Below, in pieces: positions 1 through 64,000 of a DNA stretch of 64,000 nucleotides. A program made the position numbers and the translations under genes. The notes beneath the pieces were generated by a model. It was given only the letters and a program-made list of their open reading frames with translations. It made no database searches and was not told where the DNA came from. The DNA lies in the NCBI GenBank assembly GCA_010093995.1, contig ML992513.1, positions 230,578 through 294,577 on the forward strand. Reading direction: 5' to 3'. How positions within the stretch are numbered: position 1 is the first letter of the stretch; each line of letters begins with the position of its first letter. This DNA is from Elsinoe ampelina. Its lineage: Eukaryota.

Positions 1-500
1 ACTTATGCCGGCCTTAGTATATATATTTAAGCTTCCTAGAGGAACTAGGTTTCTTATAAAGAATATTCTTAGTAGCTATAGAGAAGGCTATAGCTCCCTT
101 ACTAGCCTTTATAGTACTATATAGCTTATAGAGTTTATAAAACTGTCTAAACTTAGTAATTAGTTTAAGTATAGTTAGTAGAGTTAGTAAATCTAGATTA
201 ATAAGATACTTATTAGTAAATGCTAGTTTAGCCTTTAAGATAGAGAGTAAGAAGTCTCTCTATAGCCTTAAGCCTTAAGCTTCTAGTAGATTATAGTTCC
301 TAGCCTTATCTATAACCTCTTTCTATTACTAAAGCTAATAGTCTATATTTTATAAGAAAGAGCTAGATAGCTACTTCCTCTAGAGTGCTTTAATCTTAAG
401 CTAAATAGCTATATTAGATAGAGTAAATCTATTCTTTAATGCTCTAAGAATAGCCTATAGATAAGGATTCTCTTCTAGTTAGATAATAGTAAGAACTTAT

Positions 501-965
501 TATTACGAACTAGTAGGACAAGCTAGAGCGTAGGGATATTAGGACTAATTAAACTACTAAGGTTATTACGTAACCTAGCCTAACGTTTACCTAGTTCTCT
601 ATCTTCTCTAGTAGCTCTACCCCGGAAACTATAGAGCACGTAGGATTACTAGCGGATATATACTTTGTCTTCTCTAGTAGCTCTACTACGGAGTATATAA
701 AGTATATAGAGTACGTAGTAAGAAATACATATATATAGAAATAGTCCTTACCTTATATAAGTACTATAGTTAACCTCGTCTAGATAGCGAATACTAGTAT
801 TACTAAGACTAGCCTTTATAATACTATCTAATTGTACTTTATTATCTATAAGATATACCTTCTCTAACTCTTACCTTAGTACTATACTACTATAGAAGTA
901 GAACTACCTCGTTCTTAGCTTAGCTTAGACTACTAATATAAGCTATATTTAGACAGTTCGTAATA
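501..965 (+). repeat. Gypsy A copy 1, 5' LTR
   Basis: Direct repeat of 7059-7523, differing by C>T/G>A transitions. Confidence 0.95.
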
Positions 966-982
966 TTTTAACTACCCTTACT

Positions 983-3900
983 ATAGTATAGTACGCTATA
1001 AGGTTAATAAGTAACTCTTACTCTAAGTTACTATTAGTATCTTCGATCGCTAGTAAGCTAGGAAAGCTTACTATTAATAACATATCTACTACTAGTTTAA
1101 CCTCGGGTAAACATAGAAGGTCTCTTAGTATAGAGAAAGAATAGAGTAAGCCTAAGTTAGAAGTGGAACTCTTCTATAAGGACTGCGCCTACTTAAGGCA
1201 CTTTCTTGTTTAACTTAAAGCCTTCTTTGCCCTAGAGAGAGATAAGTACGCTAACGACGTAGTAAAGGTCCTCTATACTAGGATATACCTTAAAGGCGCT
1301 ACCTTTAGGTAGTTCGAGCCTTATATAAGTAGCTACCTAGATAGACAACTAGGCCTAGATATAAAGGCTATCTTTAAGAGCTTTAGCATCTTCTAGGCAA
1401 AGATTAAGTAAGTCTTTAATATATCTAATAAGAAATACGTCGCTATAACGAAGATCCGACAACTATAATAACGTAGGTCTATAGCCTAGTACTATTCCTA
1501 GTTCTAATAACTTGTAATGCACCTAGACTAAGATAATAGTACTAAACATTTAGTATTCTACTAAGGACTAAGCGACTCGGTTAAAGACTAAATAATACCT
1601 AAGCTGCCTAATAGCCTCTAAGAACTAGTAGACACTATAATTGCTATTAATAACTAACTTTATAAACGACATATAGAACGTTATAGAGGATATAAGGCAA
1701 ACACTAGATATACGCGTTCCTCTCGAAACTATAGAGACCCTATAGAACTTAATACTATATACGAAGGCTGCCTCTTATAGGTATAAGGCTAAAGTTATAG
1801 AGGAAAGTTCCTTAGTAGAAAAGAGAGAGAGAAGTATAGATAAGACAATTTATATTTTAAGTGTAAAAGACCTAGGTATCGGGCTAGGGACTACTAATAA
1901 GGGGCGCTAGCCGATAGATTATATATAATAGTTGCTAGGCTAGTAGAGAAAAAGGCTAACACTACTATAGAAGACCTAACGACCTTTAGCGTAGGTAAGG
2001 AAATATAGAAGAAGTCTACGACAACTCGAGAGGTAATAGAATTCTCTTCGAATGTTACGCTTAATATCTCTATAACTAATAGTAAATAATAAAGCTAACA
2101 CGTAACGCTATTATAGATAGTATATTATAATAACTCTTGTTATATTTACTTATTAGACAAGTAGAGATCTAGTTAGTTTCTATATAAGCTATCTAAGTAT
2201 AGGTAACTAACGAAATAGCTAGACTAGGAACCTAACCTAGAAGAGCTCCCTATAATTAGTAGTAACATTAACTAACCTTAGAAGGTAGTTAGCGACAATT
2301 ACTAATATATAATTATCGAGATAAAGTATTAGGACGCAAGTGCTATATAACAATATAGTAGCCTTACCTTTAGCCCTTATAGTAAACTATAAGGAAAGGC
2401 ATATTATATATTACTCTAGAAATGTATAAATCTAGATTACGAATAGTACTATACTATTTACTTATACAATATACTCGGAGAAGAGGCTATTAGTCTTAAA
2501 TACACTACGGACTTCTTAGTAATTGAAATAGGTAGTACTATTCTCTATAGCTAAGTACGGGAATATACTTAGTGTAGCTTTACTAACTATAACTATACTA
2601 GAGGTAGTAGCGACGAAGAGGAATATAACGAAGAATATGCCGAATAACAATAATATAATAATATAGATAATAATTTATTTAACAACGACGACGATATACT
2701 ACTACTAGGCGAACGACTTAAAGTATACCTTATAGGGATATAGAGAAACTATATAATAATATACACCTATTACTAGAATAGAATATAACAAGATAAATCT
2801 ACTTAACCTACTTTTGTCTTCGATACTAATACCTAGCTACACCTAGAAGGAATAGTTATACTAATATAAGTATACGACACTACTTAGTATAACTAATAGA
2901 GAATTATTAGACTTTATAGTCATTAAGGAACGTAAGCACTAGAAGTTTACCTCGCTATGTTAAACAATAACAAGACACGACTAGCCTAATAGATATAGTA
3001 CTAATAGTAGATACGCGTAGGAAGGGATTAGCTACTTATCTAAGGCGCTATAATAACAAAAAACTAGCTAGTTGTTACCTAATAAGGTAAGATAATAACA
3101 CTAGCTAAAGCCTTAATATAATAAAGATCTACACGTTAAATTACTTTATACTAGAAGTCTAGATATAAGGAAATAAGGTAAGAGCAATAATAGATTCGGG
3201 AGCTAACTATAGCTATATCTCTATAATAGTTACTAATTAGCTTAAACCTTATTAACATTAGAAGGAGTTACCTTACCTACTTACTATAGTAAATAGAACC
3301 TCTATAGAGAAGGACGGAAAAGTTACTTAGAAACTATAAAACGTTATAATTAGAATTAGGACACATATAGAAAAATAATTAATTAATATAGTTAATATAT
3401 AGTATAATATAGTACTTAGTATAGACTAGCTTTAATAATATAATCTAGACGTAGACTAGATTAAAGGAACACTCGAATTCTCTAAGTATAATTATAGGAC
3501 ATAGGGAGTATAATTAGCTCTATAGATACTAACTATAAGAATAGTATAGGTACGACTAATAGTTAGAGCTATCGCTAGCGTAAGTAATTAAGTACTTCCG
3601 CCGGAATATAAAGACTTTAAGGACTTATTTAAAGAAAGGAAAGGCATTATAGCCTTACTCTAATATAAACTATAGAATTATAAAATACCTTTCGAAGAGA
3701 GTAAATCCCCGATATACTATTAAGGTCTTATACTACTGTCGAAATAAGAGGAGAATATCCTTAAGAACTATATCGATAAGTACTTACTTAAAGGATTTAT
3801 ATAACTATTAAAATTACCTATTACGTATAGAGTGCTTTTTACACTAAAAAAGGATAAAACATTATAAATATACATTAATTACTAGAAACTTAATACACTT

Positions 3901-6439
3901 ACTAGGAAGAATTACTATCCCCTACTAAGGATTAATAAACTTTAAGACCGACTACTTAGAGCTAAATAGTTCACTGCGATTAATATTAGGGATGCCTATT
4001 ATTAAGTATAAATAAAGAAGAGTAAGGAGTAGAAAATAGCTTTTAGAACATAATAGAGTCTATATAAGTACCTCGTTATACTCTTTAGGTTAACTAATGC
4101 TCCTATAACCTTCTAAGAGTTAATTAATAATACTCTATAAGAATACTTTAATAACTTTATCTTAGTATATTTAGATAATATTGTTATTTTCTTAAAGATG
4201 TATAATAAACATATAGGACATATTTATAAAGTACTATAGAAACTAAAAGAGAAAGACCTACTAGTAAAACTCTCTAAGTATAAGTTCTATAAGCACAAGA
4301 TACAATTTCTAGGCTATATTATATCTACTAATAGCATTAGACCTAATCTAAGGAAGATCGAGTTAGTAAATAACTAGCCGGAACCTACGATAGTTAAGGA
4401 GGTTTAAGCGCTACTAGAGTTCTTTAACTACTACTATAAGTTTGTTAAAGGATTCTTTAAGGTAGCTATACTAATATCTAACCTTACGAAAAAGAAAACT
4501 AGCTTTATCTTCGACGAGAAATGTAGGTAGGCCTTTAAGGAGCTAAAGCTTAGGCTTATAATAGTATCTATCCTAGCACTCTTTAACCTAGACCGATAAG
4601 TACTACTAGAAACGGATGCCTTAGACTTTACAATAGAAGCGTATCTAGTATAGAAGAACGTAGAAGAATAACACTACCTAATTATATACTACTTACGAAA
4701 AATAACTAGACCTAAACTTAACTACGATATATATAATAAGGAATTACTCGCGATTATAGAAGTGTTCTATAAATAGAGAGTATACCTAGAAGAGATAACC
4801 TTACCTATATAAGTCTATACCGACTATAAGAACCTTCTATATTAAACAATAACTAAGGTTCTTAATAGATAATAGATTCGATAGTTAGAAACACTTATAA
4901 GCTATAACTTCTAGATCTACTATGTTAAGGAATTAGAGAATAGCGAAGTAGACGCTCTTAGCCGCTAGTCGGATTACTTAAAAAATATAACAATAATAGA
5001 GGCCTCTATACTAAAGTAGTAGGATAGCGCTTTAGTCTATAAGCACCCGAAGGTAGAGTAGTTATATAGCCTCACCTAGGAGCTTACGTAAGAATAGAAA
5101 AAAAGAAGTTATTTAAATATACTATAATAACCTAACTATAGGATATAGTAGGATCGATAAGACTATTAAACTTATTACATAAAACTACCTCTAGAAAGAA
5201 CTCCGAAACGATATTAAGACATATATTACTATATATAATACATGCTATAAGTCTAAACACTCTCGATATAAACTATATAGCCTACTATAACTCTTACTAC
5301 TACTAGATAAACTATAGTAATTAGTTATAATAGACTTTATAGGACCTCTACTACTATTAGAAGAACCTCTTACAGGTGTAAAGTATAATAGTATTCTAGT
5401 CCTAGTAGATAGATTTACGAAGTATTACTATTTTGTACTATATAAGATAATAGTAACTACTAAGGATATAGCCTTTATCTTCCTCCGAATAATTGTTTTA
5501 TAATACGGAGTACTACGAGACTTAATAACTAATAGGGATAAGCTATTTACGTCACAATTCTAGTAATTATTTATAGACCTACTAGGAGTTAAATATAAGC
5601 TATTAACCTCCTTTTACCTATAAATAGATAGACAAACTAAATAGGCAAATTAAGTACTAGAGTAGTACCTACGCTACTACCTAAACTATAAGTAAGACTT
5701 ATAGGTAATACTATTACTACTCGTAGAGCTTGCTATTAATAATAGAAAGTTAGTAAATAGAGTTTTACTATTCTATATAAACTATAGAATACACCTAAAT
5801 CTATACTACGATATACTTAGAATTAAGCTAATATCTAAGGATATAAATAGACTAGTAGCTAACATTAAGAAGTTATATAACTAGCTATACTAAGATATAG
5901 CATTTATATTACAAAGAATAGTAGGGTTTACTAACTAGAAGAGAATTATAGGACTAATTCTATAGAAGGGAGAGAAGGTTTACCTCCTTAGTAAAAACAT
6001 TAAAACGAAACAACTAAGTAAGAAACTTAACTACACTAAACTAGGACCCTTTAAGATCCTAGAAAAGAAAAACAAAAACGTATACAAACTAGAACTACCT
6101 AGACATATAAGGATCTATCTAGTCTTTTATATATTACTATTAGAGAAAGCACTATAGGACATAGTACCTAGACTTATTAAACTAGATAAAGAAACACAGG
6201 AGCTATAATATAAAATTAAAAGAGTTTTACGTTATAAATCTATAAGGGGAAAACGTTACTATCTTATTTACTAGAAAGGATATTAGTATAGTAAGGTAAT
6301 ATAGGAACTAGAGGAACACTTTACCTCGTAAGCAATTCTAGATTACTAAACTAAAAACCTATCCTAAGTAAACTAACTAGGTAGGCTAGACGCTACTAAT
6401 ACTAAACAAAAATAAGAACGCCTAAGAAAGACTACTTAG
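983..6439 (+). pseudogene. gag-pol of Gypsy A copy 1 (gag with CCHC, protease, RT, RNase H, integrase, chromodomain), inactivated by RIP
   Basis: De-RIPed motifs: CFKCKRPGHRARDC ~1850-1895; IDSGA ~3190; YLDDI ~4168-4182; ETDASD ~4610; DGQTERAN ~5630; chromodomain YYLVHWKGY...WEPEEH ~6255-6320. Many TAA/TAG stops. Confidence 0.9.
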
Positions 6440-6984
6440 CCGATAGAAGTACCTTAATCGTCGCTAAATAAGGAACCCTAATCGGAGTTAGGTATAAATA
6501 ATTACTAATCCTATAGTAGGATAGAATCCACCGACAATAGTATTTCCTCTTACTCTAGGACTTAAATACGAGTTTCCTCTAGGTAAATTACTTTCTCTAC
6601 CTTATTCTCTAGTTTCTATATCGCTTTACATAGGCAAAGCTTATCGCCTATAGCTCTTTAATAAGCCTCTTTCGCCTTTTTATAAGCTTCTTTAGCTTCC
6701 TTTCTAGTAGCCTTAGCTATAACTAATTCCTTTTATAAACGAATATACTTAGACTAGAGACGCTACTATTCTAATTTTGTTACTTAAATATTATAATCTA
6801 AGTAGTTACTTACGACATACTAGCTATAGATACCCGACCGAATATAGACCTTATAGTCTAGCCCCTTCGATTTATAACAAGAATAAGCCTATAGCATGTT
6901 AGTTCTAAATAGTTTAATAAACTTCGAGAGATTCTTTTATATAGATATACTAGATTTACTATGCCTTTAATAACTAGAAGGCAT
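6436..6984 (-). pseudogene. Antisense ORF in Gypsy A 3' region: Zn(II)2Cys6-like cluster plus coiled coil (RIP-degraded)
   Basis: Single 549-nt frame. Six TAT codons (RIP of TGT) are spaced C-x2-C-x6-C-x8-C-x2-C-x7-C at 6885-6793, followed by a K/E/A-rich helix. Same frame and length in copy 2. Confidence 0.65.
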
Positions 6985-7058
6985 ATTTAGTATATAGCGC
7001 GTAAAGATAGAGAAGAATACTTACTTATTAGAACAACTTAATTAAAGGAGGAGAGTAA

Positions 7059-7523
7059 TATTACGAACTAGTAGGACAAGCTAGAGCGTAGAGATATTAG
7101 GACTAATTAAACTACTAAGGTTATTACGTGACCTAGTCTAATATTTACCTAGTTCTCTATCTTCTCTAGTAGCTCTACCCCGGAAACTATAGAGCGCGTA
7201 GAATTACTAGCGGACGTGTACTCTATCTTCTCTAGTAGCTCTACTACGGAGCATATAGAGTATATAGAGTATATAGTAAGGAATATATATATATAGGAAT
7301 AGTCCTTACCTTATATAAGTACTATAGTTAACCTTGTCTAGATAGCGAACACTAGTATTACTAAGGCTAGCCTTTATAATACTATCTAATTGTACTTTAT
7401 TATCTATAAGACATATCTTCTCTAACTCTTACCTTAGTGCTATACTACTATAGAAGTAGAACTACCTCGTTCTTAGCTTAGCTTAGACTACTAACGTAGG
7501 CTGTGTTTAGACAGTTCGTGACA
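7059..7523 (+). repeat. Gypsy A copy 1, 3' LTR
   Basis: Direct repeat of 501-965; ends TGACA and is preceded by the PPT. Confidence 0.95.
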
Positions 7524-7989
7524 CTTATAGTACAATTAATAACTAAATAAGGCTAGCTAAATTAGCTAAGGCCTTATACTATTTATTATATTATACTTAT
7601 TCCTCCTTATATATCTAGAAGAGTACTAAGAAGTTAGTATTTACTACCTCTAGCCTTTAAGGCTTAGGGAGCCCTTCTAGTTTAATAGTCTTCTAGGGAT
7701 TAATAAGGTTCTATATCTTAGTGTTTAATACTCTTATCTTAATAATATATAGCTAGCTAGCCTATTTAGCTAATATAGTAAGAATAATAAGTGTTCTAGC
7801 TATTAAGGTATTAGTATCTATAGTTGTTTATCTCCTTATTAATATCTAAATCCTGTAGTTATAGTTAAGGTAGTTCTTAATAGATTCTAATACTTAAAAA
7901 GTAAGATAGTAGAGAATTAACTAATAAATAGAGTAGGAAAGTAACTAAGTAATATACTTATATAGGGGTAGTTATACTAGGCTTATAAC

Positions 7990-8248
7990 TATTAACTTGT
8001 GTAGGGGAGGAAACAGGATTAATTACTGCCTAATCTACTAAACTAAGGTGGATTATAACTATATAAATACTTAACCTAGTGTACTAAAAGATAGCTAAAT
8101 TAAAAGAACTCCTTAATAGTAGCAGATTAAGACAATAATTATCTAATTTGATTATGGATTAGTAAAATGGTAAGATAGTGTTCAGTTCAACCTTGGGATG
8201 AACTGACTCAGGGTCTTCTTGGCGCTCCAGCTTATGCCTCGGTTGACA
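7990..8248 (-). repeat. Copia 5' LTR (259 bp)
   Basis: Inverted match to 59260-59518 with the same length and TG...CA termini. Confidence 0.85.
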
Positions 8249-8601
8249 GGGAAGCCCCCGGCGTTTGTCCGGGTTGCGGGGTGAACAGGCAAGCAAAAGT
8301 GGAATGAACGCGGGGTGAAAGGTCCTTAGACTCGTGAGAGTGAAGATCGTCAGGTGAAAAGAGGGCTCAGCATGTCATTCAAGGTCATTTTTCATTCGAG
8401 CGATCGACCGCTATTCGATATCGCTTTACTCCTCACAGCGATTTCGGCTGCCGCATTTCCCGTATGGCTCTCTCATGTCCACAATGCGAAGCCGCCAAAC
8501 CAGACCATACCATAACGCCGCGCTCATGAAGCTTTTCATCCTTGATGATGCTGCCGGGTTGCGACTTTACCGTCGCCATTAGTCAATTCCCCTTTTCGAC
8601 C

Positions 8602-25637: not shown

Positions 25638-26898
25638 TTTGTTGGTTGTGATTGACGGGGCCAGCGTTGCCGCAGCGAACGAGAGGAGTTGGTACAGCAT
25701 TGTTGATTGTACGATAGTAGGAAACGAATGTAAGAACTGACAAACTCGAGAGAAATGTCGTGGTACTTGCGGCAAATTGAAGACAAAACCGGTGCTGGGT
25801 TGGTGGTCATATTTGAAACAATGTCTGGGGACCTTGTGGCATGTTACCGTGGCACGGGGCAAAAGTGCAGCGGTGCGATACGGCATGCGTAAATAACTAC
25901 ACGCACTGCCAGTCATCTGATTGCGCAGATAAGTGCAGAAATAGTGGTATACCTCTGTTTGGCAACGCTGCGCTGCGCATTCGGAAGCATGAGAACCCTC
26001 CATTCCGAGTTCCTGTCGGGCTGAAGGATTGCGCCGCTCGACGTGAAGATGTACAGCGTCCTTGAGCGGCGCGTCCCTTACCTGACCAGCGCTGCAAGAG
26101 TCTTATGCGGGCCGTCATCATTCTGAACGCGAAACGGGAACAGGAGGAGTAACGTGCGCCATGGGGGTTTGCAGCTCCCCCCCCTTTGCAGCGCTGCCAA
26201 ATCGAGGGTAGGATCGCCGCCCGTTAGCGTGTGTAAAAAGGCATCTTTTTGGCGGGTCTGAACACATCTTGGCGGGCTAAAAGCCCTAGTGCAGTTTCTT
26301 CTTAAGGCTTAAAAACGTGAAGCTGAAAAAAGGTAGTATAGACTAGCTCTTAAGGCTTAAAAATTAAAGCTAAAAAAAGGTATAATAAGCTATTACTACT
26401 AGCTATTATATAGAAGCGTTTATAACTCTTAACTATCCGGCACTTCTAGAAGCTAAGTGCTCTAAGTGCTTAGAGGCTAAGTGCTCTAAGTGCTCTAAGT
26501 ACTTTAGCTAACTATCTTCTATAGTAGTATTTAAGCTCTTTATATTTACTATTAAGGTAAGAATTGTAAAATTGATAGAGGAGGAGTTAGTAAGGCTAGA
26601 GGGAGTAGCGACAGTGTAAAAGGTAGTACTAGAAATAAGAAGAAGAATATTAGAGACTAGTAAGACTAAAGAGGTATAATAAAAAGTTATAGTAGTATTA
26701 GTAATAGAGAAGAAGAAGATAAAGATTAGTATAAAGAGTTTACTAAAGAGATTAAAGTATACCGCTGTCTCTTTTTAGCTAGCCTTTAACTACTTAGCTA
26801 AGTACTAGATTATAAGTTAGACTATAAGTTAAATTATAAACTAGATAAGGCCTTTAAAGGCTTAATTCTCTTCTTGTAATTATTACACTAGAATATAG

Positions 26899-29800
26899 TA
26901 TTATAAACTAGTAGGATAGCTAGAGCGTAGGGACGTTAGGACTAATTAAACTACTAAGGTTATTACGTGACCTAGTTTAATATTTACTTAATTCTCTATC
27001 TTCTCTAGTAACTCTACTCTAGAGACTATAGAGTATATAGGTTACTAGTAAATATGTACTCTATATTACCTCTAACTCTCGCTATAGAGTATATAGAGTA
27101 TATAGAGTATATAGTAAAGAATACATATATATAGGAATAGTCTTTACCTTATATAAGTACTATAGTTAACCTTATCTAGATAGTAAACACTAGTATTACT
27201 AAGGCTAGCCTTTATAATACTATCTAATTATACTTTATTATCTATAAGATATACCTTCTCTAACTCTTACTTTAGTACTATACTACTATAGAAGTAGAAC
27301 TACCTCGTTCTTAGCTTAGCTTAGACTACTAGTATAGGCTATATTAGATAGTTTATAATACTTTAACTACTCTTACTATAGTATAGCACGCTATAAGGTT
27401 AATAAGTAACTCTTGCTCTAAGTTACTATTAGTATCTTTAATCGCTAGTAAGCTAGGAAAGCTTACTATTAATAATATATCTACTACTAGTTTAACCTTA
27501 AGTAAATATAGAAGGTCTCTTAGTATAGAGAAAAGATAGAGTAGGCCTAAGTTAGAAGTAGAACTCTTCTATAGGGACTACGCCTACTTAAGGCACTTTC
27601 TTGTTTAACTTAAGGCCTTCTTTACCCTAGAGGGGAACAAGTACACTAATAATATAGTAAAAGTCCTCTATACTAGAATATACCTTAAAGGTGCTACCTT
27701 TAGGTAGTTCGAGCCTTATATAAGTAGCTACCTAGATAGATAACTAGGCCTAGATATAAAGGCTATCTTTAAGAGCTTTAGTATCTTCTAGGCAAAGATT
27801 AAGTAAGTCTTTAATATATCTAATAAGAAGTATATTACTATAACAAAGATTTAATAACTATAATAATATAGGTCTATAGCCTAGTACTATTCCTAGTTCT
27901 AGTAACTCGTAATACACCTAGACTAGGACGATAGTACTAAACACTCTATATTCTATTAAGGGCTAAGCGACTTAGTTAAAGATTAAATAATACTCGAGCC
28001 GCTAGATAGCCTTTAAGAACTAGTAAATACTATAATTACTATTAATAACTAACTCTATAAACAACATATAGAACGCTATAGAGAATATAAAGTAAACACT
28101 AGATACACGTGTTTCTCTTAGAGTTATAGAGACTCTATAGAACTTAATACTATATGTAAAGGTTACCTCTTATAGGTATAAGACTATAGCTATAGAGGAA
28201 AGTTCCTTAGCGAAAAAGAGAGAGAGAAGTATAGATAAGACAATCTATATTTTAAATATAAAAGACCTAGACATTAGGCTAGAGACTACTAATAAGAGGC
28301 GCTAGCTAATAGATTATATATAATAGTTACTAGGCTAGTAGAGAAAAAGGCTAATACTACTATAGAAGACCTAACGACCTTTAGTATAGATAAGAAAATA
28401 TAGAAGAAGTCTATAATAACTTAAGAGACAATAGAACTCTCTCTAGATATTACGCTTAATATCTCTATAACTAATAATAAATAATAAAGCTATTATATAA
28501 CGCTATTATAGATAGTATATTATAACAACTCTTATTATATTTACTTATTAGATAAGTAGGGATCTAGTTAGTTCCTATATAAGCTATCTAAGTATAGGTA
28601 ACTAATAAAATAGCTAGACTAGGGACCTAACCTAGAAGAGCTCTCTATAATTAGTAGTAATATTAACTAACCTTAGAAGGTAGTTAGTAATAATTACTAA
28701 TATACGATTATTAAAACGAAGTATTAGAACGCAAGTACTATATAACAATATAGTAGCCTTACCTTTAGCCTTTATAGTAAACTATAAGGAAAGGTATATT
28801 ATATATCGCTCTAGAAATATATAAATCTAAATTATAAATAGTACTATACTATCTACTTATATAATATACTTAGAGAAGACACTATTAGTCTTAAATACAC
28901 TATAGACTTCTTAGTAATCGAAATAGATAGTACTATCCCCTATAGCTAAGTAAAGAAATATACTTAGTATAGCTTTACTAATTATAACTATACTAGGGGT
29001 AGTAGCGATAAAGAGAAATATAATAAAGAATATACTAAATAACTATAATATAATAATATAGATAAGAATTTATTTAACAACAATAATAATAACAATGTAC
29101 TACTACTAGATAAGTAACTTAAGGTGTACCTTATAGAAATATAGAGAAATTATATAATAATATACACCTACTACTAGAGTAGGACATAATAAGACAAATC
29201 TACTTAACTTATATTTGTCTTTAATACTAATATATAGCTCTATTTAGAAGGAATAGTTATACTAATATAGGTGTATAATACTACTTAGTATAATTAGTAG
29301 AGAATTATTAGACTTTATAGTTATTAAGGAACTTAAGCGCTAGAAGTCTAGCTTACTATATTAAATAGTAATAAGACACGACTAGCCTAATAAGTATAGT
29401 ACTAATAGTAGATATATACGGGAAGGAATTAGCTACTTATCTAAGGAGCTATAATAACAAAAAACTAGCTAGTTATTACCTAATAAGGTAAGACAATAAC
29501 ACTAGCTAAAGCCTTAATATAATAAAGATCTATATATCGAACTACTTTATACTAGAAGTCGAAATATAAGAGAATAAAGTAAGAGTAATAATAGATTTAG
29601 GAGCTAACTATAGCTACGTTTCTATAATAGTTACTAACTAGCTTAAACCTTATTAATATTAGAAGGAGTTACCTTACCTACTTACTATAGCGAATAGAAC
29701 CTCTATAGGGAAGAATAGGAAAGTTACTTAGGAACTATAAAATATTATAATCAAAATCAAAACACACATAGAAAAACAATTAATCAATATAGTAAACATA

Positions 29801-32800
29801 TAGTATAATATAGTACTTAGTATAGACTAGCTTTAATAACATAATCTAGACATAGACTAGATTAAAGAAATACTTAAATTCCCTAAGTATAATTATAAAA
29901 CGTAAAAAGTATAATTAGCTCTATAGATACTAACTATAAGAATAGTATAGGTACAACTAATAGTTAGAGCTATTACTAGCGTAAGTAATTAAGTACTTTC
30001 GCTAGAATATAAAAACTTTAAGGATTTATTTAAAGAAAGAAAAGGCATTATAGCCTTACTCTAATATAAACTATAGAATTATAAAATACTCTTTAAAGAG
30101 AGTAAATTCCTAATATACTATTAAGGTCTTATACTACTATCGAAATAAGAGAAGAATATCCTTAAGAACTATATCGATAAGTACCTACTTAAAGGATTTA
30201 TACAACTATTAAAATTACCTATTATATATAGAGTGCTTTTTGTACCTAAAAAGAATAGAATATTATAAATATACATTAATTACTAAAAACTTAATATACT
30301 TACTAAGAAGAATTACTATTCTCTACTAAGGATTAACAAACTTTAAGACTAACTACTTAGAGCTAAATAGTTTACTATAATTAATATTAGGGACGCCTAT
30401 TATTAAGTATAAATAAAGGAGAGCGAAGAGTAAAAAACAGCTTTTAGGACGTAATAGAGTCTATATAAGTACCTCGTTATACTCTTTAGGTTAACTAATA
30501 CTTCTATAACCTTCTAAGAGTTAATTAATAATACTCTATAAGAATACTTTAATACCTTTATCTTAGTATATTTAGATAATATTATTATCTTCTTAAAGAT
30601 ATATAACAAATATATAAAATATATTTATAAGGTACTATAGAAACTAAAAGAAAAAGACTTACTAGTAAAGCTCTCTAAGTATAAGTTTTATAAATATAAG
30701 ATATAATTTCTAAGCTATATTATATCTACTAATAGTATTAGACCTAATCTAAAGAAGATCGAGTTAGTAAATAACTAGCTAAAACTTACTATAGTTAAGA
30801 AGGTTTAAGCACTACTAGGATTCTTTAACTACTATTACAAGTTTATCGAAGGATTCTCTAAGGTAGCTACGCTAATATCTAACCTTACGAAGAAAGAAAC
30901 TAGCTTTGTCTTTAACGAAAAGTATAAGTAGGCCTTTAAGGAGCTAAAGCTTAGACTTATAATAGTACCTGTCCTAGTACTCTTTAACCTAGACTAGTAA
31001 GCGCTACTAGAAATAGATACCTTAGACTTTATAATAGAAGCGTATCTAGCGTAGAAGAATATAGAAGAACGACGCTACCTAATTATATACTACTTACGAA
31101 AAATAACTAGATCTAAACTTAACTATAATATATATAATAAGGAGTTACTTATAATTATAGAAGTATTCTATAAGTAGAGAGTATACCTAGAAGAAATAAC
31201 CTTACCTATATAAGTCTATACTAACTATAAGAATCTATTATATTAGATAATAACTAAGGTTCTTAATAGATAATAGATTCGATAGTTAGAAACACTTATA
31301 AGCTATAACTTTTAGATCTACTATATTAAGGAATTAGAGAATAGTAGAGTAGACGCTCTTAGCCGATAACTAGATTACTTAAAGAATATAACAATAATAG
31401 AGGCCTCTATACTAAAGTAGTAAAATAGCGCTCTAGTCTATAAGTACCCGAAGGTAGAGTAGTTATATAGCCTTACTTAGAAGCTTATATAAGAATAGAA
31501 GAAAGAAGTTATTTAAATATACTATAACGACCTAATAGTAGAGTATAGTAGAATTAATAAGACTATTAAACTTATTATATAAAACTACCTATAGAAAGAA
31601 CTCTAAAACAATATTAAGATATATATTACTATATACGATATATGCTACAAGTCTAAGCACTTATAACATAAGCTATATAGGCTATTATAACTCTTACTAC
31701 TACTAGATAAACTATAGTAATTAGTTATAATAGACTTTATAGAACCTCTACTACTATTAGAAGAACCTCTTACAGGTATAAAGTATAATAGTATTCTAGT
31801 TCTAGTAGATAGATTTACAAAATATTACTACTTTATACTATATAAAACAATAGTAACTACCGAGGATATAGCCTTTACCTTTCTCTAAATAATTGTTTTA
31901 TAACATAAAGTACTATAAGACCTAATAACTAATAGAGATAAGCTATTTATATTATAATTCTAGTAATTATTTATAGACCTACTAGGAGTTAAATATAAGC
32001 TATTAATCTTCTTTTATCTATAAATAGATAAATAAACTAAATAGGCAAATTAAGTACTAGAGTAGTACCTACGCTACTACCTAAACTATAAGTAAGACTT
32101 ATAGGTAACACTATTACTACTTATAGAGCTTGCTATTAATAATAGAAAGTTAGCTAATAAAATTTTACTATTTTATATAAACTATAGAATATACCTAGAT
32201 CTATACTATAACATACTTAGAATTAAGCTAATATCTAAGGATACTAATATANNNNNNNNNNNNNNNNNNNNNNNNNNNNNNNNNNNNNNNNNNNNNNNNN
32301 NNNNNNNNNNNNNNNNNNNNNNNNNNNNNNNNNNNNNNNNNNNNNNNNNNNNNNNNNNNNNNNNNNNNNNNNNNNNNNNNNNNNNNNNNNNNNNNNTAGT
32401 CTTTTATATATTACTACTAGAGAAAGCACTATAGAATACTATACCTAGACCTATTAAACTAGATAAAGAAACATAGGAGCTATAGTATAAAATCGAAAGA
32501 GTTTTATATTATAAATCTATAAGAGAAAAGCGTTACTATCTTATCTACTAGAAAGGATATTAGTATAGTAAGGCAATATAGGAACTAGAGAAACACTTTA
32601 CCTCGTAAGTAATTCTAAATTACTAGACTAAAAACCTATCCTAAGTAAACTAACTAGGTAGGCCCGACGCTACTAATACTAAATAAAAATAAGAATGCCT
32701 AAGGAAGACTACTTAGCTAATAGAAGCACCTTAATCGTTACTAAATAAGGAACTCTAATCGGAGTTAGGTATAAATAATTACTAGTTCTATAGTAGAATA

Positions 32801-33797
32801 AAATTTACTAACGATAGTATTTCCTTCTACTTTAAGATTTAAATATAAGTCTTCTCTAGAGAGATTACTTTCTCTACCTTATTCTTTAACTTTTATATCT
32901 CTTTATATAGGTAAAGCTTATTACCTATAGCTCTTTAATAAGTCTCTTTTACCTTTTTATAAGCTTCTTTAGCTTTCTTTCTAGCGGCCTTAGCTATAAC
33001 TAATTCCTTTTATAAACGAATATACTTAGACTAAAGATACTACTATTTTAATTTTATTACTTAAATATTATAACTCGAGTAGTTACTCGTAATATACTAG
33101 CTATAAATATCCGACCGAATATAGACTTTATAGTCTAGCTCTTTTAACTTATAACAAGAGTAAGCTTATAGCATAATAGTTCTAAATAACTTAATAAACT
33201 CTAAAAGGTTCTTTCGTATAGATATACTAGATTTACTATGTCTTTAATAACTAGAAGGCATATTTAGTATATAGTATAGAAGGATAAGAAAGAATACTTA
33301 CTTATTAAAACAACTCGATTAAAAGAGAAAAGTAATATTATAAACTAGTAGGATAGCTAAAGCGTAGAGACGTTAGAACTAATTAAACTACTAAGGTTAT
33401 TACGTAACCTAGCTTAATATTTACTTAATTCTCTATCTTCTCTAGTAACTCTACCTTAGAGACTATAGAGTATATAGGTTACTAGTAGACGTATACTCTA
33501 TATTGCCCCTAACTCTCGCTATAGAGTATATAGAGTATATAGAGTATATAGTAAAGAATATATATATATAGAAATAGTTCTTACCTTATATAAGTACTAT
33601 AGTTAACCTCATCTAGATAGTAAACACTAGTATTACTAAGGCTAGCCTTTATAATACTATCTAATTGTACTTTATTATCTATAAGATATACCTTCTCTAA
33701 CTCTTACCTTAGTACTATACTACTATAGAAGTAGAACTATCTTATTCTTAGCTTAGCTTAGACTACTAGCGTAGGCTATATTAGATAGTTTATAATA
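26899..33797 (+). mobile_element. Full-length RIP-degraded Gypsy chromovirus, family A, copy 2 (contains an N gap at ~32252-32396)
   Basis: 462-bp LTRs at 26899-27360 and 33336-33797. TSD TATAG at 26894-26898 and 33798-33802. Collinear with 501-7523; gag-pol remnant 27378-32716. Confidence 0.95.
32713..33261 (-). pseudogene. Antisense Zn2Cys6-like ORF of Gypsy A copy 2
   Basis: 549 nt, with the same six TAT/TAC positions as copy 1. Confidence 0.65.
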
Positions 33798-33802
33798 TAT
33801 AG

Positions 33803-35570
33803 CGTTAAGGTATTACTGCCTTAATTACTTGTATATAGTTTATACTATTTAAGTTTATAAGTCTTTATAGCTAAAGAGTAACTTATAGTTTTACTAGTGC
33901 TTTTAAGCCTATTAATACTTAGTATAAGTAACGTAAGTCTTCTTCTTAAGCTATTTAAGTAGCTATTACTGTTTATGCTTTTTAATTAAGTCTTCTATGT
34001 TAAGTATATACGTATTAGCCTTTATATAATTCTTTAGCCTTGTCTTTTTAGTTCTTACCTCTTCTTCTAACTTAGCTACTCTCTTATAAAGAAGTATATT
34101 AGTGTTAGTAGTAATATTATAGCTCTTTTATAGCTTCTCTACTATTACTTCTACTATAGAGTTAGTAAGGTAGCGTATATAGCTAAGCTAATAGTTAAAA
34201 TAACACTAAGTTTAAGGCGTAATATCGAGAGTAAAAGGAGTAATATCTAGTAGAGAGCTATCTAAGGGGACTTAAGAGAATAAGGTAGCTATAAGGCTAT
34301 TAAGTTAATTAAGCACTTAGTATAGATTATAAGGCTAAATTCTAGCGGCTTTAAAGGCGTCGAGTTAAGCGTTATAGCTAAAGGTAATATTGTAAATATT
34401 TAAATAAGCCTTAATAAGATTAGTATATATAATTTTATTAACTACTTAGTGTGCTTTAGCTTAGATCTTACATCGATAATTAGCCTTTAAAGCTATAAAG
34501 ATTATAATGTTAAGAGGCTAAAGAAGGTATATTAAATACATAGGGAGGATAAGAAGAATAATACCTTTCTTATAAGTAAGTAATAGAAAGAGAAGTAACT
34601 TATAGGTACTATAGCTATCTATTATAAGTAGCCTTTTATAGTGCTAAAGATTCTTCTCTTTTACCTTCTCTATCGAATTTAGATAGTAAGGTCTTATATA
34701 CTTATAAAAAAGATATAACTACTCGATAGTATAATTCTTATCTAACTAGCTATTTTATAATACTACTATCTTACTATTTTATATACTATCTTATAGTAAT
34801 AGTTAAGTAAGCTAGTAGCTCTAATTAACATTAATATTACTACCTTTAAGAATAATATAGAGAGGTATTTAATAGCTACTAGCACTTAGAGTCTCGATAG
34901 TTGTAGCCTATGTTCTATCCCTTAGTTAGTAGTATATTAGTGCCTTTAAGTCTCTCTTAATAACTAACTAAGCTAGGCTAGTTTAGCCTATTATATATCT
35001 AGTCTTATCTATGTTATATATGTTACAACTATCAATATTATACTAGTTAATCGTCGCTTCTAAGATGCTAAACTACAACTTAATAAAAGCTAGATCTTAG
35101 TTCTTATTTACTCTTTTACTATTAAGGGCTTAAGTATACTTAAGAGATAGTTCTAAATAATATTTAAAGAACTTATAAGGCTAGTTTTTGCTAATAGGCT
35201 AAGGCTAAGACTAGTAAGGGAGAGAGGAGTTATTTATCTAGTTATACTAAATAATTTAATTAGTAAGTTTACTAATTATAGTATAAGTAGGAGAGTATCT
35301 ACTATTAATAAGATACTTAATATATCTAACTAAGGCCTCCTCTTATATAGGGGTAAGTTGTTATTATAGTATAGCTATACTTAACTATATAGTATAGAGG
35401 CCCTAAATATAGTATAATAGAGTTATTATAACTACTTCTAGATAGTAACAAGTAAGCTCTTTAAAGCTTAGAGAGTGTTTAGAGGCATAATATTTAGCAA
35501 TTGTAGCTTGAATTGCCTCTTTATAGCATGTAGTAGTAGTTCTAGAAGAGGGTATATTATAGTAATTAGG
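33803..35570 (-). pseudogene. Fot1/pogo DDE transposase remnant (C-terminus continues left of the Gypsy insert)
   Basis: De-RIPed HTH-like EAIQAAIAEY...TTLLRRIQG ~35400-35520; LIMDGHGT ~34605-34630; LPxHSTHLLQPLDIVIF ~34495-34550. Confidence 0.8.
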
Positions 35571-59259: not shown

Positions 59260-61639
59260 TGTCAACCGAGGCATAAGCTGGAGCGCTAAGAAGACCCTGA
59301 ATCAGTTCATCCCAAGGTTGAACTAAACACTATCTTACTATTTTACTAATCCATGATCAAATTAGATAATTATTGTCTTAATCTGCTACTATTAAGGAGT
59401 TCTTTTAATTTAGCTATCTTTTAGTATACTAGGTTAAGTATTTATATAGTTATAATCTACCTTATTTTAGTAGTTTAGGTAGTAATTAATTCTTTTTCCT
59501 CCCCTATATAAATTAATAGTTATAAGTCTAGTATAACTACCCTTATATAAGTATATTACTTAGTTACTTTCCTACTCTATTTATTAGTTAATTCTCTACT
59601 ATCTTGCTTTTTAAGTATTAGAATCTATTAAGAACTACCTTAACTATAACTATAGAATTTAGGTATTAATAAAGGGATAAATAACTATAGATACTAATAC
59701 CTTAATAGCTAGAACACCTATTATTCTTGCTATATTAGCTAAATAGGCTAGCTAGCTATATATTATTAAGATAAGAGTATTAAATACTAAGATATAGAAC
59801 CTTATTAATCCCTAGAAAACTATTAAACTAGAAGGGCTTCCTAAGCCTTAGAGGCTAAAGGTAGTAAATACTAACTTCTTAGTATTCTTCTAGATATATA
59901 AGGAGGAATAAGCATAATATAACAAATAGTATAAGGCCTTAACTAATTTAGCTAGCCTTATTTAGTTATTAATTACACTATAAGTTCTTACTATTATCTA
60001 ACTAGAAGGGGATCCTTATCTATAGGCTATCCTTAGAGTATTAAAGAATAGATTTACTCTATCTAATATAGCTATTTAGCTTAAGGTTAAAGCACTCTAG
60101 AGGAAGTAGCTATCTAGCTCTTCCTTATAGAATATAGACTATTAGCTTTAGTAATAGAAAGAGGTTATAGANNNNNNNNNNNNNNNNNNNNNNNNNNNNN
60201 NNNNNNNNNNNNNNNNNNNNNNNNNNNNNNNNNNNNNNNNNNNNNNNNNNNNNNNNNNNNNNNNNNNNNNNNNNNNNNNNNNNNNNNNNNNNNNNNNNNN
60301 NNNNNNNNNNNNNNNNNNNNNNNNNNNNNNNNNNNNNNNNNNNNNNNNNNNNNNNNNNNNNNNNNNNNNNNNNNNNNNNNNNNNNNNNNNNNNNNNNNNN
60401 NNNNNNNNNNNNNNNNNNNNNNNNNNNNNNNNNNNNNNNNNNNNNNNNNNNNNNNNNNNNNNNNNNNNNNNNNNNNNNNNNNNNNNNNNNNNNNNNNNNN
60501 NNNNNNNNNNNNNNNNNNNNNNNNNNNNNNNNNNNNNNNNNNNNNNNNNNNNNNNNNNNNNNNNNNNNNNNNNNNNNNNNNNNNNNNNNNNNNNNNNNNN
60601 NNNNNNNNNNNNNNNNNNNNNNNNNNNNNNNNNNNNNNNNNNNNNNNNNNNNNNNNNNNNNNNNNNNNNCTATTCTATAGTAATACCTTACTTAGTATTA
60701 AGAGTTAAAGAACTATTAATATTATAGCTCTTTATAAAGGAAAGTCTATAACTATCTATCTTATAAAGGTAGCCTATATACTATTAATTATAACTAATCT
60801 AGTTAGCCTTAGGAGGTTTATTAATAGTAGAGTCTACTAGAACACTTAAACTATAGAGATTAGCTATAAAGGAAAAGTACTCTTCTTAGTTATACTAAAG
60901 TATAACTAATATATCTTTAAGAATAACTCTAAAGCTTCTAATATTACTACTATAGTATTAAGGAATAATAATAATTGTCTACTATTAGTATTTACTATAG
61001 TTACTATAAGGACTAATTAATCTTAGTATAAAGTTATAGACTATCTAAGCCTAGAGTCTATTAATTACCTTTTAACTGCTATAGTTAGTAGTAAACTAAC
61101 TCTAACTAAGCCTAGTTTAGCTTAACTAATTTATCTTAGGTCTCTATATTAGACTTATAAGCTATTAAATACTTAGTAGATTATATTAAGAAGCTCTAAC
61201 AATAAACTTACTATATTAAAGCTATTTAAGAGAACTACCTTTAATATTATTATTAATAGATTTACTAGCTATAATAAGGTAAGATATATAAGCTACTTTA
61301 CTTATAGGACTACTAACTATTAACTAGTTACTACTTATACTTATAGATATAAGATTAATAAAATCTATATTAAGATAATTACTTATATTAAAAGTAATTT
61401 TAGCTTCAAAATTAAATTCCTTAGAAGTAATAATAAGAGAGCCTTTAGCCTTAAATTTACTATCTTCCTAAATAGTAAAGAAATCTATTATAAGCTATCT
61501 ACTTTCTATACTTAAGCTTAGAATAGTTATAATAAAAGGATAGAAGCTATACTATTAAGGAGAGTAAGGGCAATTACTATCTTTACTAATCTACTAAGGG
61601 AATTATACTCTTATTAAAGCCTTATATTAAAGCTATATA
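59260..61639 (+). mobile_element. RIP-degraded Copia element (5' LTR 59260-59518, gag, N gap, integrase)
   Basis: LTR and gag match the left copy. After the gap: de-RIPed LWHKVMGHPS (GAG-pre-integrase) ~61022-61050 and IKFLRSDNE ~61411-61437. Continuity across the gap is assumed. Confidence 0.75.
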
Positions 61640-64000
61640 TATCGTAATATAGAGAACGCCTATTTAACTAAATAGTCCGTTAGTAGTAGAACTAATTACT
61701 ATTAAGCCCCGGGCGTAAGCGCTACGTAGGATATTTAAGTACATTATGTAAGCGGAACTAGCTACTACTAAGTGCCGCTCTAATACTAAGCTCTTATAAT
61801 TGCCTCCTCCTCTAGGAGAGCTATCCTTAGCTCTCGACCGGAAGTGTGTAATATATAGTATTATTTAGAGGTAATATAGGCGTAAGGTAGTTAAGGCATT
61901 TTTATAAAGGCCTCGTATATGTCTTATATAATGTCTAGTAGTAGTAGTCCTAGGAATCTAGTTCCTAGGGGAGCGTTTGTCTAGTCGCTATAGCGCTAAA
62001 GCTAATCGGCAGTAATAATATTACTTTTCTTAGAATTTCTAGTAGTATTATAGGAGATATACGCCTTGTGCTAGTAGCTATAATAAAGATATAGTACACT
62101 AGAGGTTAGTCTATATTATCTTATTATTCCCCCTTATGTTCTTCTTTTCTACCTAAAACACATTTATATTTTATTAACCTCTTACTATATAAGTATACTA
62201 CCTATAACTATTATATTATTTAACTCCGGCCCCCCTATAGCTAACACTTATAGCGTAAGGTCTACTAGCGCCTAGGGAGCTATTACTGCTAGCGCTAACT
62301 CTATAACTCTCTTACTTTCTAAAGAGAAGGCTAATACCTATACTAGGTATACTAATAGCGTCGCTAAGAGTAAGCTAATAGAGCTCTTATAAGGGACATA
62401 ACTAATTTATAGTAGGTCGTGTCTATACTAGAGGTAACTTTAGTATCTTCTTCTATTATAAGTGCGAACACTACGCCTATAATAAGTATATATACGAGCT
62501 ACTTCTATCTATCCTATATAACTTATACATCGACGCCTTTAACATAGTTACTAAGCTTAAGGCCCCCGACTAGGCCGGCATCACTGTAGCTAAGAAGTAT
62601 ATATATACTATAGCCTATAAGAACGTCTCTAAGGTTAAGAAGTTTAAGACTATACTTAAGGTATACTACACTAATAAGAACAAGGTCGTTAGTAAGGTCT
62701 TAACTCCTCGTATAGGGCCTATAGGTAGCTTACTTAGTAGTGTTATACTTAAGCGTAAGAAGGTTAAGAAACTATAGAAGATTAGGTATAGCCTTTATAG
62801 CTTAATTACTATCGGCAAGGAGGTAAGTTAAACTATGCTCTATATGCGTTATAAACATAGCTAATAGGTTTAGATAGTGCGTAACTCTAGTAGTTCTACT
62901 ACTAAAATCGACTATATTATAGCTAGTAGGTAGCTTATAGCCCCTATAGCACCTATAGGGGAGAATCTTAGTATAGAGGTAAACGAGGAGGATAGTAAGG
63001 ATAAGTAGGCACATACGAGACAGGTGTACGTCCCTAGCGCTATACCTATAATAAGGCCTTATATAGAGCATAATAGAGCATAGAGTTTAGGTTAATACCC
63101 GTAATAGTAGCGCAAGTATAGCGCTTTATTAAAATATATTTCCCTAGGTAAGGAGTCTACTCTTTACTCTATTTATATATTTATATAATCTATCTACTTA
63201 TATACTCTATAATCTACGCCTTTAGTAACCTTTCTTAGCTACTCTTAGCTATAACTTGTATATAGTAATTAGCTCTCTTATATTTACGTAATTCTCTTTA
63301 GGTTCCTAGCTATTAAACTTAATAGGCTAGTCCTTCTACTTTACTAAGTAGAATACCTTACCCTTTGTAGTTCTCCTGCCTAGAATCTTCTCTACTATCT
63401 ACTTATCTACTTCGTTAGCGAGAGGTATACTCTCTTCTAGCTCCTTACTAGCTTTACCTATCTATAGTTTAAGAAGAGATATATAAAAGACATTATAGAT
63501 GTAATACTAACTCAGTAAAGCTAGGTAATACGCCTATAATTTAATTGTGTCAAGTATATAGAATAGGCTAAGGAATTGTAGTTCTATCTTCTTCTTTAGT
63601 ATAGGTAGCTATAAGTTCTTAGCCGAGAGTAGTACTAAGTTACCTATACTATATACCTTTAGTATATACTTCCTATTGTAGTACTTAGCCTAGTAGGCGG
63701 AAGCCTCTTTCTATTACTCTACTAGCTTCGTATATATGTCTTATAAGCGTTATACTAACTCTACTACTACTAGTACTCTTCTCTCTAAAGTCTTGTCCCG
63801 AGACTTAATAGCTATTACCTCTAACTCTAGATAGTAGCTATATATTATTTAGAAGAGGCTTATACGTAGTATAGTATAAACGCTATTATTGCTTATAAAT
63901 TCCACTTGTAATAGACGTTCGGCCTAGTCGTTCTATAGCTCTATATAGTAGTACCTTAGGTACTATTCTAACATCTAGTTTTACTACTTAGTTTAACTAT
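61640..64000 (-). mobile_element. RIP-degraded Gypsy chromovirus, family B (3' LTR ~61640-62123, PPT, 3' region, chromodomain, integrase; runs off the window)
   Basis: - strand de-RIPed DGQTERQNQMLEQYLR, FLGPF, IHNVFHVSLL and VEKILG...FYLVKWKDW...SWEP at 63210-64000. PPT aagggggaa at ~62127-62135. Not alignable by eye to family A; LTR limits approximate. Confidence 0.8.
62213..62933 (+). pseudogene. Antisense, two-intron Cys6-cluster gene inside Gypsy B (RIP-degraded)
   Basis: Introns 62370-62412 (or 62415) and 62823-62867. Spliced Cys spacing is C-x2-C-x9/10-C-x12-C-x2-C-x6-C. Gene ends uncertain. Confidence 0.55.

Follow-up and report, generated by a model that had tools for sequence, protein, structure and literature searches.

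An antisense accessory gene with spliceosomal introns between pol and the 3' long terminal repeat of an Elsinoe ampelina chromovirus and its relatives, with a predicted Zn2Cys6-like product

Additional genes on the strand opposite to gag-pol have been described in a few long terminal repeat (LTR) retrotransposons. The antisense gene brtn of the chromodomain-bearing element Boty (BcGypsy1) of Botrytis cinerea and Sclerotinia was reported by Zhao et al. in 2011, according to passages in later papers (PMC8365987, PMC7264820, PMC4227169, PMC5987419), and among these passages a BRTN-like transcript in Monilinia is also noted. Among plant Ty3/Gypsy elements, passages in two papers place antisense open reading frames (ORFs) between pol and the 3' LTR of Grande, RIRE2, Retand and PvRetro13, that of Retand encoding a TRP28 domain (PMC7264820, PMC11963269). 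For the TRP28 protein, a DNA-binding, regulatory role has been proposed by analogy with retroviral antisense genes (PMC11963269). Here we describe an antisense gene at the same position in Elsinoe ampelina. The stretch analyzed, hereafter the window, comprises 64,000 nt of contig ML992513.1 (GenBank assembly GCA_010093995.1, positions 230,578 to 294,577 of the forward strand), and its last 2 kb contain the 3' end of a minus-strand Ty3/Gypsy element, designated family B, which is cut by the window end. On the plus strand between the family B chromodomain and 3' LTR lies a three-exon gene (62237-63008) that runs opposite to pol and has been inactivated by repeat-induced point mutation (RIP). The gene is real, belongs to the element and is conserved, together with introns, in several lineages of related elements. 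That it is a genuine accessory gene of this chromovirus lineage is very likely; the fuller proposal, in which this RIP-killed gene coded for an element-encoded DNA-binding regulator of the Zn2Cys6 type, is one we consider probable.

The gene spans 225 codons with four premature stops (exon borders 62237-62369, 62413-62822 and 62874-63008). Exon 1 contains an in-frame TAG at 62273 and the first two cysteine positions, both now TAT (62339 and 62348), within the codons acc tat act agg tat at 62336-62350. No ATG is left in this exon; in-frame ATA codons at 62237 and 62303 are candidate starts, and the start codon is uncertain. Intron 1 (62370-62412) measures 43 nt and reads GTAAGC...ACTAAT...TAG. 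Exon 2 follows (62413-62822), with the frame GRVY TRGNFSIFFYYKCEHYAYNKYIYE beginning at 62415; its third cysteine position reads TAT (62424), the fourth is an intact TGC (62463-62465), the fifth and sixth read TAC (62472 and 62493), and a helical region comes next. Only two TAG stops (62571 and 62775) fall in the 136 codons to 62822. An earlier note on this sequence had pointed to the same five codons, to a 43-46-nt intron from 62370, to the TGC at 62463 and to a long frame with just two TAG stops after the intron, and all of these are present as it described them.

The second intron calls for a correction. The earlier note placed it at 62823-62867 (45 nt); the GTAAGT donor at 62823 holds, but the more likely acceptor is at 62873, giving an intron of 51 nt (62823-62873) that reads GTAAGT...GCTAAT...TAG. 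Judged from sequence, this acceptor is preferred because one TAG vanishes, a CTAAT branch site lies 8 nt before the AG, and the resulting start of exon 3, IVRN, is collinear with relatives from metagenomes introduced below, matching LLRD in L001 and PPIVRD or PPIVND in L003 and L014. The donor follows IGKE in the window, the same place as the donor of L001 after VGKA, and a BLASTP alignment of window exon 2 with the L001 exon (4e-6) extends to the exon end. Exon 3 (62874-63008) encodes an acidic tail, EVNEEDSKDK, with one internal TAG before the terminal TAG at 63006-63008; BLASTP gave no alignment between this exon and the last exon of L001.

Five of the six cysteine codons in the window thus read TAT or TAC, and only the fourth (TGC) survives. 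The change from TGT or TGC to TAT or TAC is the TpG-to-TpA change made by RIP. With five of six cysteine codons lost, four premature stops and no ATG, the window copy is dead.

An exhaustive HMMER search with the raw 136-codon translation against 1.84 billion representative proteins (E ≤ 0.001) returned a single match (E 2.3e-4): the 213-aa hypothetical protein KAF4546987.1 of Elsinoe fawcettii, here P0002. In pairwise BLASTP, exon 2 aligned with P0002 at 8e-16 and 32% identity. P0002 has the cysteine pattern C31-x2-C34-x9-C44-x12-C57-x2-C60-x6-C67, and the spacing in the first half of the window domain is x10. A RIP-aware local alignment was then used, in which window codons may revert from T to C or from A to G and codon shuffles serve as the control. 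The spliced model aligned with P0002 residues 2-213 over 210 columns, of which 55 were identical and 63 more were RIP-compatible, with all six cysteine columns matched and a score of 537 (277 ± 18.6 for 100 codon shuffles). Exon 2 by itself reached a z score of 17, a value attained by 0 of 300 shuffles, and exon 3 scored z 4.3 against P0002 residues 165-213 (0 of 300 shuffles; z 2.5 and -0.3 for the other two frames). The score of exon 1 was weak (z 2.1, reached by 15 of 300 shuffles, with one wrong frame at z 2.6). By position, the comparison of exon 1 with P0002 residues 26-40, ungapped and with RIP reversal allowed, ranks second of 40,918 positions, and the exon fits the family-wide motif C-x-R-C-A. 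Homology to P0002 ends at the lysine codon 62366-62368 (Q40) and restarts at the glycine codon at 62415 (G41), on either side of the GT...AG segment. As the 46 nt between K 62368 and G 62415 cannot be coded in frame, intron 1 is placed there.

The low number of stops in the window gene (4 in 225 codons, versus 29 in 313 codons of the family B pol frame, read with X at stops) suggests a protein poor in the Gln and Trp codons that RIP turns into stops. By our own count, P0002 contains six Gln and one Trp, and its Q158 is aligned with the window TAG at 62775. In word-based protein searches, P0002, used either whole or as residues 28-170, found nothing but itself, and a metagenome scan with alignment A1 found no relative. 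A protein atlas offers no more than leads: its nearest clusters contain unnamed Ascomycota proteins (0.91 and 0.88), and DUF3716 is present on 28% of one cluster, at 0.77.

The neighboring pol leads to the same fungus. Searched against longer proteins, the family B pol fragment likewise had a single match (E 8.8e-56): P0004, the 1198-aa Tf2-type polyprotein KAF4546986.1 of Elsinoe fawcettii, with RVT_1, rve and Chromo families. The two align at 44% identity over 259 aa without gaps, so that raw identity to the Elsinoe fawcettii homologues is 32% for the antisense gene and 44% for pol. The accessions of P0002 and P0004 are consecutive and each is reported on one contig of 18,192 bp, so that pol and the accessory gene are almost certainly neighbors in that genome.

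Metagenome contigs were scanned with P0004, yielding 24 loci that carry no taxonomy, have pol on the plus strand and share 36-64% identity with P0004; a viral-contig scan with the same query found no relative. In one locus after another, the minus-strand ORFs downstream of pol show the same three parts, the first rich in cysteine, the second helical and in a different frame, and the third acidic. In L001, the closest locus (GC 0.57), tblastn with P0002 matched the minus strand at 5840-5694, just downstream of pol (E 5e-6), where the gene is cut by the contig end. A hidden Markov model (HMM) built from alignment A2 of the relatives' cysteine domains gave 16 matches at E < 1e-3 in 15 of the 24 loci, all antisense to pol. 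Every one of the 14 loci with 800 nt or more beyond pol has the six-cysteine domain in antisense; among the ten other loci, L001 carries the 3' part of the gene and L008 both of its ends, while eight are too short to judge. Where LTR pairs could be detected, the gene lay between pol and the 3' LTR in five of five loci. Its presence in 14 of 14 sufficiently long loci, and within the LTR pair in five of five, makes it an accessory gene that is general to a clade of fungal chromoviruses. Identity of the cysteine domain between loci ranges from 22 to 44%, corresponding to about six lineages, and nine loci, several of them degraded, fall in a single lineage, the L003 group.

The introns of the relatives are also antisense to pol. 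On that strand, GT[AG] donors, CT[AG]AC branch sites and YAG acceptors accompany every exon border examined in six non-RIPped loci (L001, L003, L004, L009, L012 and L014). Outside the P0002 subfamily, the relatives contain one intron immediately after the sixth cysteine, between C-x-P/Q and [VI]-P, and another before the acidic tail. The latter is common to the window and the relatives; the window gene has no intron after the sixth cysteine, and intron 1, between the second and third cysteines, is known from the window copy alone. An antisense accessory gene between pol and the 3' LTR, a six-cysteine pattern and antisense spliceosomal introns within the element had all been proposed in the earlier note, and each is recovered in P0002 or in these loci. 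Lying inside the element on the strand opposite to pol, present in many copies of its family and conserved like other element proteins, the gene belongs to the antisense additional ORF class aORF-3R, which includes brtn of Boty.

Two of the loci deserve separate mention. In L014 the gene (5671-6866) has an uninterrupted spliced reading of 230 aa with two canonical introns, and the available 127 nt of both LTRs are 100% identical; L014 looks like a young element. In L008 the cysteine (5') part of the gene is found at 31-546 and the 3' part at 7029-7487, the arrangement that would result from an assembly in which both LTRs were merged into one and the contig ran around the element.

For an intron to outlast retrotransposition, the genomic RNA must remain unspliced at it. 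As the gene lies on the antisense strand of gag-pol and the genomic RNA is the other strand, that RNA would never be spliced at these introns, allowing them to persist. Expression would require a promoter of the gene's own, reading out of the 3' LTR side, so that the antisense transcript would start near or in the 3' LTR and would end at its own polyadenylation site near the end of pol.

The predicted proteins, of 130-230 aa across the family, share the order of a short N-terminus, a six-cysteine domain, a conserved C-x-P-[VIL]-P linker, a long helical region and an acidic tail. The tail is rich in Asp and Glu in four of the four members whose last exon was read (L001, L003, L014 and P0002), and the domain follows C-x2-C-x9-11-C-x7-12-C-x2-C-x6-C across members. 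The Zn2Cys6 motif is C-x2-C-x6-C-x5-12-C-x2-C-x6-8-C. When the A2 profile was compared with 177,635 distinct PDB sequences, GAL4 accounted for the only two rows obtained at E ≤ 10 (E 2 and 8.4); the third to sixth cysteines were in register, and the helix after them was aligned as well. For the 56-aa exon of L009, an AlphaFold model made with A2 had a pLDDT of 72.2 and showed a short helix starting at each C-x2-C. With this model, Foldseek returned 12 matches at E ≤ 10 among 350,542 chains (E 0.76-9.7), all of them Zn2Cys6 DNA-binding domains, including those of Pho7, PPR1, LAC9, LEU3, PUT3 and GAL4; in most rows, superposition of the predicted halves, each a helix plus a strand, gave TM scores of 0.37-0.46 and root-mean-square deviations of 1.5-3.5 Å over 32-42 residues. 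Taken singly, these fold and profile scores are not significant, and AlphaFold may echo a familiar cysteine pattern. The searches, weak as they are, point to a Zn2Cys6-like fold; the domain is called Zn2Cys6-like, and is not filed in PF00172, because the scores are not significant singly and the spacing of the first half is non-canonical.

On this basis, the cysteine domain would bind two zinc ions in a Zn2Cys6-type fold, the acidic tail would serve as the effector, and the protein may act as an activator or modulator of LTR-driven or host transcription. That the predicted protein is a DNA-binding regulator seems to us slightly better than an even chance. A more specific version, in which a clade of ascomycete chromoviruses encodes its own Gal4-type, acidic-tailed factor that binds LTR or host promoters and thereby switches on or tunes the element, is offered tentatively as one possibility. 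Words of the type bound by zinc-cluster factors were also sought in the relatives' LTRs: everted CCG-N4/N6-CGG words occur at L007:5233-5242 and L014:6841-6852. In all, two LTR families have one everted pair of CGG/CCG half-sites each, a number close to that expected by chance on our own rough estimate.

Several points weigh against the proposed regulator and the gene model behind it. DNA binding, its target and a regulatory role are deduced, and for every member transcription and splicing are likewise read from the sequence. Exon 1 and intron 1 rest on one RIPped copy and on collinearity with a predicted protein, and relatives outside the subfamily have no intron at that place. The evidence from P0002 and P0004 gives adjacency only, without relative orientation. 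In Pfam, neither P0002 nor its residues 26-82 matched Zn_clus at E ≤ 10, and the cysteine exons of L003, L004, L009 and L014 did not match it at E ≤ 1. The first half-site is x9-11 in all members versus the canonical x6; the second half and the x7-12 linker fit. A full-length AlphaFold model of P0002 was poor (pLDDT 47.5) and was not used for the fold search; it is in this low-confidence model that long helices are predicted downstream of the cysteine domain. Other searches were equally uninformative as to family. Pfam had no meaningful match on the window frame (LAGLIDADG_2, E 0.19), only Imm5_like below cut-off on P0002 (E 0.013), and only sub-threshold rows, such as zf-RRPl_C4 (E 0.019), on ten exon ORFs of relatives. 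A sequence search with P0002 against PDB found nothing, and a homodimer model of its residues 28-175, with two copies and zinc, scored 0.02.

These points bear most directly on an alternative in which the antisense gene is real and conserved but its protein is not a DNA-binding regulator of transcription. The cysteine domain might then have another zinc-dependent role: it might, for instance, bind RNA or cDNA, make contact with integrase or chromatin, or counter silencing by the host. The absence of a Pfam family on any exon, the missing Zn_clus match, the non-canonical spacing of the first three cysteines and the weakness of every structural match all speak for such a protein. On the other hand, three separate weak searches give Zn2Cys6 DNA-binding domains exclusively, and the order of cysteine domain, linker, long helices and acidic tail is that of Gal4-type activators as generally known. 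We regard another role for the protein as rather unlikely, though still deserving serious attention, and favor the DNA-binding regulator.

A second alternative concerns the origin of the gene. A host gene or foreign fragment could have landed once in this copy of family B, by capture or nested insertion, and the window offers some room for this, as it holds a single family B copy that is cut by the window end and whose 5' LTR is not available for comparison. Other copies in the source genome were examined through contigs from two DNA runs, placed at a likeness of at least 80% on 60670-64000. The runs contributed 3,903 and 2,194 short contigs, all 30 bins were covered, and the depth over the gene region was about equal to that over pol and the LTR on either side. 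Individual places within the gene show as many as 22 distinct variant contigs, and it follows that many diverged copies carry the antisense segment. In run X1, nearly all differences were transitions (C>T 90, G>A 84, A>G 45 and T>C 42, with about 8 transversions). Among the best-supported 40 of 287 variable places, the only indels were one at 61117 and a 1-nt deletion at 62842 in intron 2, the latter in one contig from another copy. The TGC of the fourth cysteine, which survives in the window, reads TAT or TAC in other copies (62464 G>A and 62465 C>T).

A one-off insertion, which the earlier note had named among the findings that would overturn its reading, is thus contradicted by many diverged copies that cover the segment continuously with its pol and LTR flanks. 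It is also at odds with the adjoining positions of the closest pol and the closest accessory protein in Elsinoe fawcettii, and with the recovery of the gene from all 14 of the sufficiently long related loci, in five of five of those with LTR pairs inside the pair. We consider such a capture very improbable and retain an accessory gene of the element. A separate observation from the same contigs is that one contig in each DNA run joins 62958 to 63022, skipping 63 nt (62959-63021) with the stop codon included; some copies therefore have a deletion of in-frame length at the 3' end of the gene.

Finally, the frame and its splice signals were compared with the remaining RIP-mutated DNA of the window. 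Among 38,014 windows of 136 codons, taken in all six frames of this DNA, the median was 15 stops, and only six had two stops or fewer, all of them on the plus strand with starts at 62406-62421; no other frame in the window's RIP-mutated DNA is as open as exon 2. In 41,270 nt of RIPped DNA, the strict pattern GTAAGY..CTAAY..YAG was found nine times, two of them inside the 770-nt gene, and GTAAGY donors number 37. That there is no gene at all, the open frame and splice-like signals having arisen by chance from RIP-biased composition, is the least probable explanation and can be set aside: RIPped DNA is indeed rich in GTAAG and CTAAT words and exon 1 alone is not significant, but the frame is the extreme of 38,014 windows, exon 2 reaches its z score of 17 against a non-RIPped protein of another genome, and intact homologues exist.

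The earlier note had regarded the gene as a general, poorly described module of fungal chromoviruses, present also in a second, dissimilar family of the window. The generality applies to the clade of family B relatives; for family A, a plus-strand Gypsy element with two full copies at about 480-7510 and 26900-33790, a counterpart was not recovered, in a comparison of low power. The three antisense frames of both copies contained 21-31 stops per approximately 250 codons, with no open frame among them and no Pfam match. Comparisons of family A with the family B gene, P0002 and five cysteine domains, by tblastn and by the RIP-aware alignment, stayed at background level, the RIP-aware test having little power here, as even family B reaches only about z 2 against more distant relatives. 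The pol of family A is also more distant from P0004, at 26-32% raw identity, than that of family B, at 46% in the same comparison. The strict donor-branch-acceptor pattern also occurs on the sense strand just past the chromodomain of both family A copies (6328-6380 and 32605-32657), where it is probably a chance match. Concerning the insertion of family A itself, the flanks of copy 1 (309-500 and 7523-8248) match 59260-60171 in inverted orientation at 95-96%, and the two arms meet at 59980-59985. Since the flanks match one continuous stretch, a third repeat family was the target of the insertion, with 59260-60171 as the empty site and a duplication of about 5-6 bp.

The window as a whole consists of GC-rich genic DNA interrupted by AT-rich islands at 1-8250, 26800-35000 and 59320-64000, which show the C-to-T and G-to-A decay typical of RIP in fungi. 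The single family B copy lies in the last of these, with no 5' LTR inside the window. The 3' part of its pol, comprising the integrase C-terminus and the chromodomain, occupies 63196-64000 on the minus strand, the pol stop being placed from the alignment with P0004. A Pfam Chromo domain was detected on the minus strand at about 63255-63398 (E 1.6e-6, 28.4 bits, cut-off 25.1), and SH3_Tf2-1, the Tf2-type integrase SH3 domain, scored 26.9 bits, under its cut-off of 30. As read from sequence, with pol containing integrase followed by a C-terminal chromodomain, family B is a Ty3/Gypsy chromovirus.

The probable 3' LTR of family B is at 61801-62224 on the minus strand, with its outer end well placed and its inner end approximate. 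Summed contig depth falls at about 61790 from 45-87 thousand to 9-33 thousand, and contigs of the neighboring repeat break off at 61796-61798; the outer border of the LTR is located by this step and by the loose ends of contigs at 61790-61798, and the minus strand at 61801 reads ...GGCA. The inner end, GTTAAAT, resembles the LTR start TGTTAGG of the relatives when RIP is allowed for. Adjoining it at 62225-62238, on the minus strand, is the candidate polypurine tract ATAGGGGGGCCGGA, which may prime plus-strand synthesis as such tracts do. The junction of tract and LTR in the relatives, AAGAAGGGGGGGGCAAT followed by TGTTAGG, is similar to that in the window, GGGGGGCCGGA followed by GTTAAAT at 62224-62236. 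A second purine run lies at 62127-62152, and the exact borders of the LTR and the polypurine tract in the window are uncertain. Next to the LTR, a repeat with a GC content of about 0.21 (60670-61798) has a summed contig depth 2-5 times that of family B. A plus-strand frame within it (61180-61588) is fairly open, with 3 stops in 136 codons, and its six frames have no Pfam family match. An assembly gap of 497 N (60173-60669) also falls within the repeat island.

Gag and pol are commonly regarded as all that an LTR retrotransposon needs, and a conserved antisense gene with introns in several lineages of fungal chromoviruses therefore represents a part of their biology that is absent from standard annotation. 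The gene is hidden by the masking of transposable elements and skipped by gene callers, with one predicted protein matched among the 1.84 billion searched; the family can now be defined by a profile. If the product were indeed a zinc-cluster regulator, these elements would carry their own switch, a finding that would bear on how fungal transposons escape or exploit host control and on the origin of some fungal regulators. It would also provide a fungal counterpart of retroviral transactivators and antisense regulators, and possibly a route for zinc-cluster domains between transposons and host regulatory networks.

These claims are tempered by the 2011 report of brtn as known from the papers citing it, and the earlier note's description of the module as poorly described stands only in part: an antisense gene at the same position was on record for Boty, while one of the zinc-cluster type was not found described. 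By title or abstract, no description of a zinc-cluster antisense gene in a fungal retrotransposon came to light, although Figure S1 of PMC8365987, on additional ORFs of BcGypsy families, may bear on novelty; the word 'antisense' does not occur in a survey of LTR elements across the fungal kingdom (PMC3248453). What appears to be new is that the gene is clade-wide and that its product has a predicted Zn2Cys6-like fold.

Compared with known systems, the family B gene most closely resembles brtn. According to the passages available, both belong to ascomycete Ty3/Gypsy elements with a chromodomain (PMC4227169) and are extra antisense genes between pol and the 3' LTR (PMC7264820). They differ in host, Boty occurring in Leotiomycetes and the nearest relative here coming from a Dothideomycete. 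The passages citing brtn make no mention of a cysteine or zinc-cluster domain, and the likeness is drawn from description; the searches with P0001 and P0002, which are weak for distant relatives, returned no protein of the name BRTN. The two genes may belong to the same family. Plant antisense ORFs, as described in the passages cited above, share position, orientation and conservation within families with the gene of family B. However, they occur in the non-chromovirus Tat/Retand lineages, where the interval between pol and the 3' LTR is 2.9-6.6 kb versus about 1 kb here, and their proteins are unrelated as far as tested, with no Pfam match in our case.

At the level of the protein, the closest likeness is to Zn2Cys6 factors such as GAL4, PPR1, PUT3, LEU3, Pho7 and AlcR, which also have six cysteines in two C-x2-C...C halves, followed by a helical region and an acidic tail. 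Unlike these factors, the protein described here is encoded by a transposon gene, is only 130-230 aa long, has x9-11 in its first half and lacks a PF00172 match. The host factors are large cellular proteins, many of them with a fungal-specific middle homology region that the protein described here would lack. In layout, the family B gene may be regarded as analogous to retroviral antisense genes. HBZ of HTLV-1 and ASP of HIV-1 are expressed from the 3' LTR, can be spliced independently of the genomic RNA and are regulatory, HBZ being a bZIP protein. A comparison of retroelement antisense genes with retroviral ones has also been drawn in a passage of PMC11963269. HBZ and ASP are unrelated proteins of animal retroviruses, and what they would share with the antisense gene of family B is the layout: a gene read from the 3' LTR side, on the strand opposite to gag and pol.

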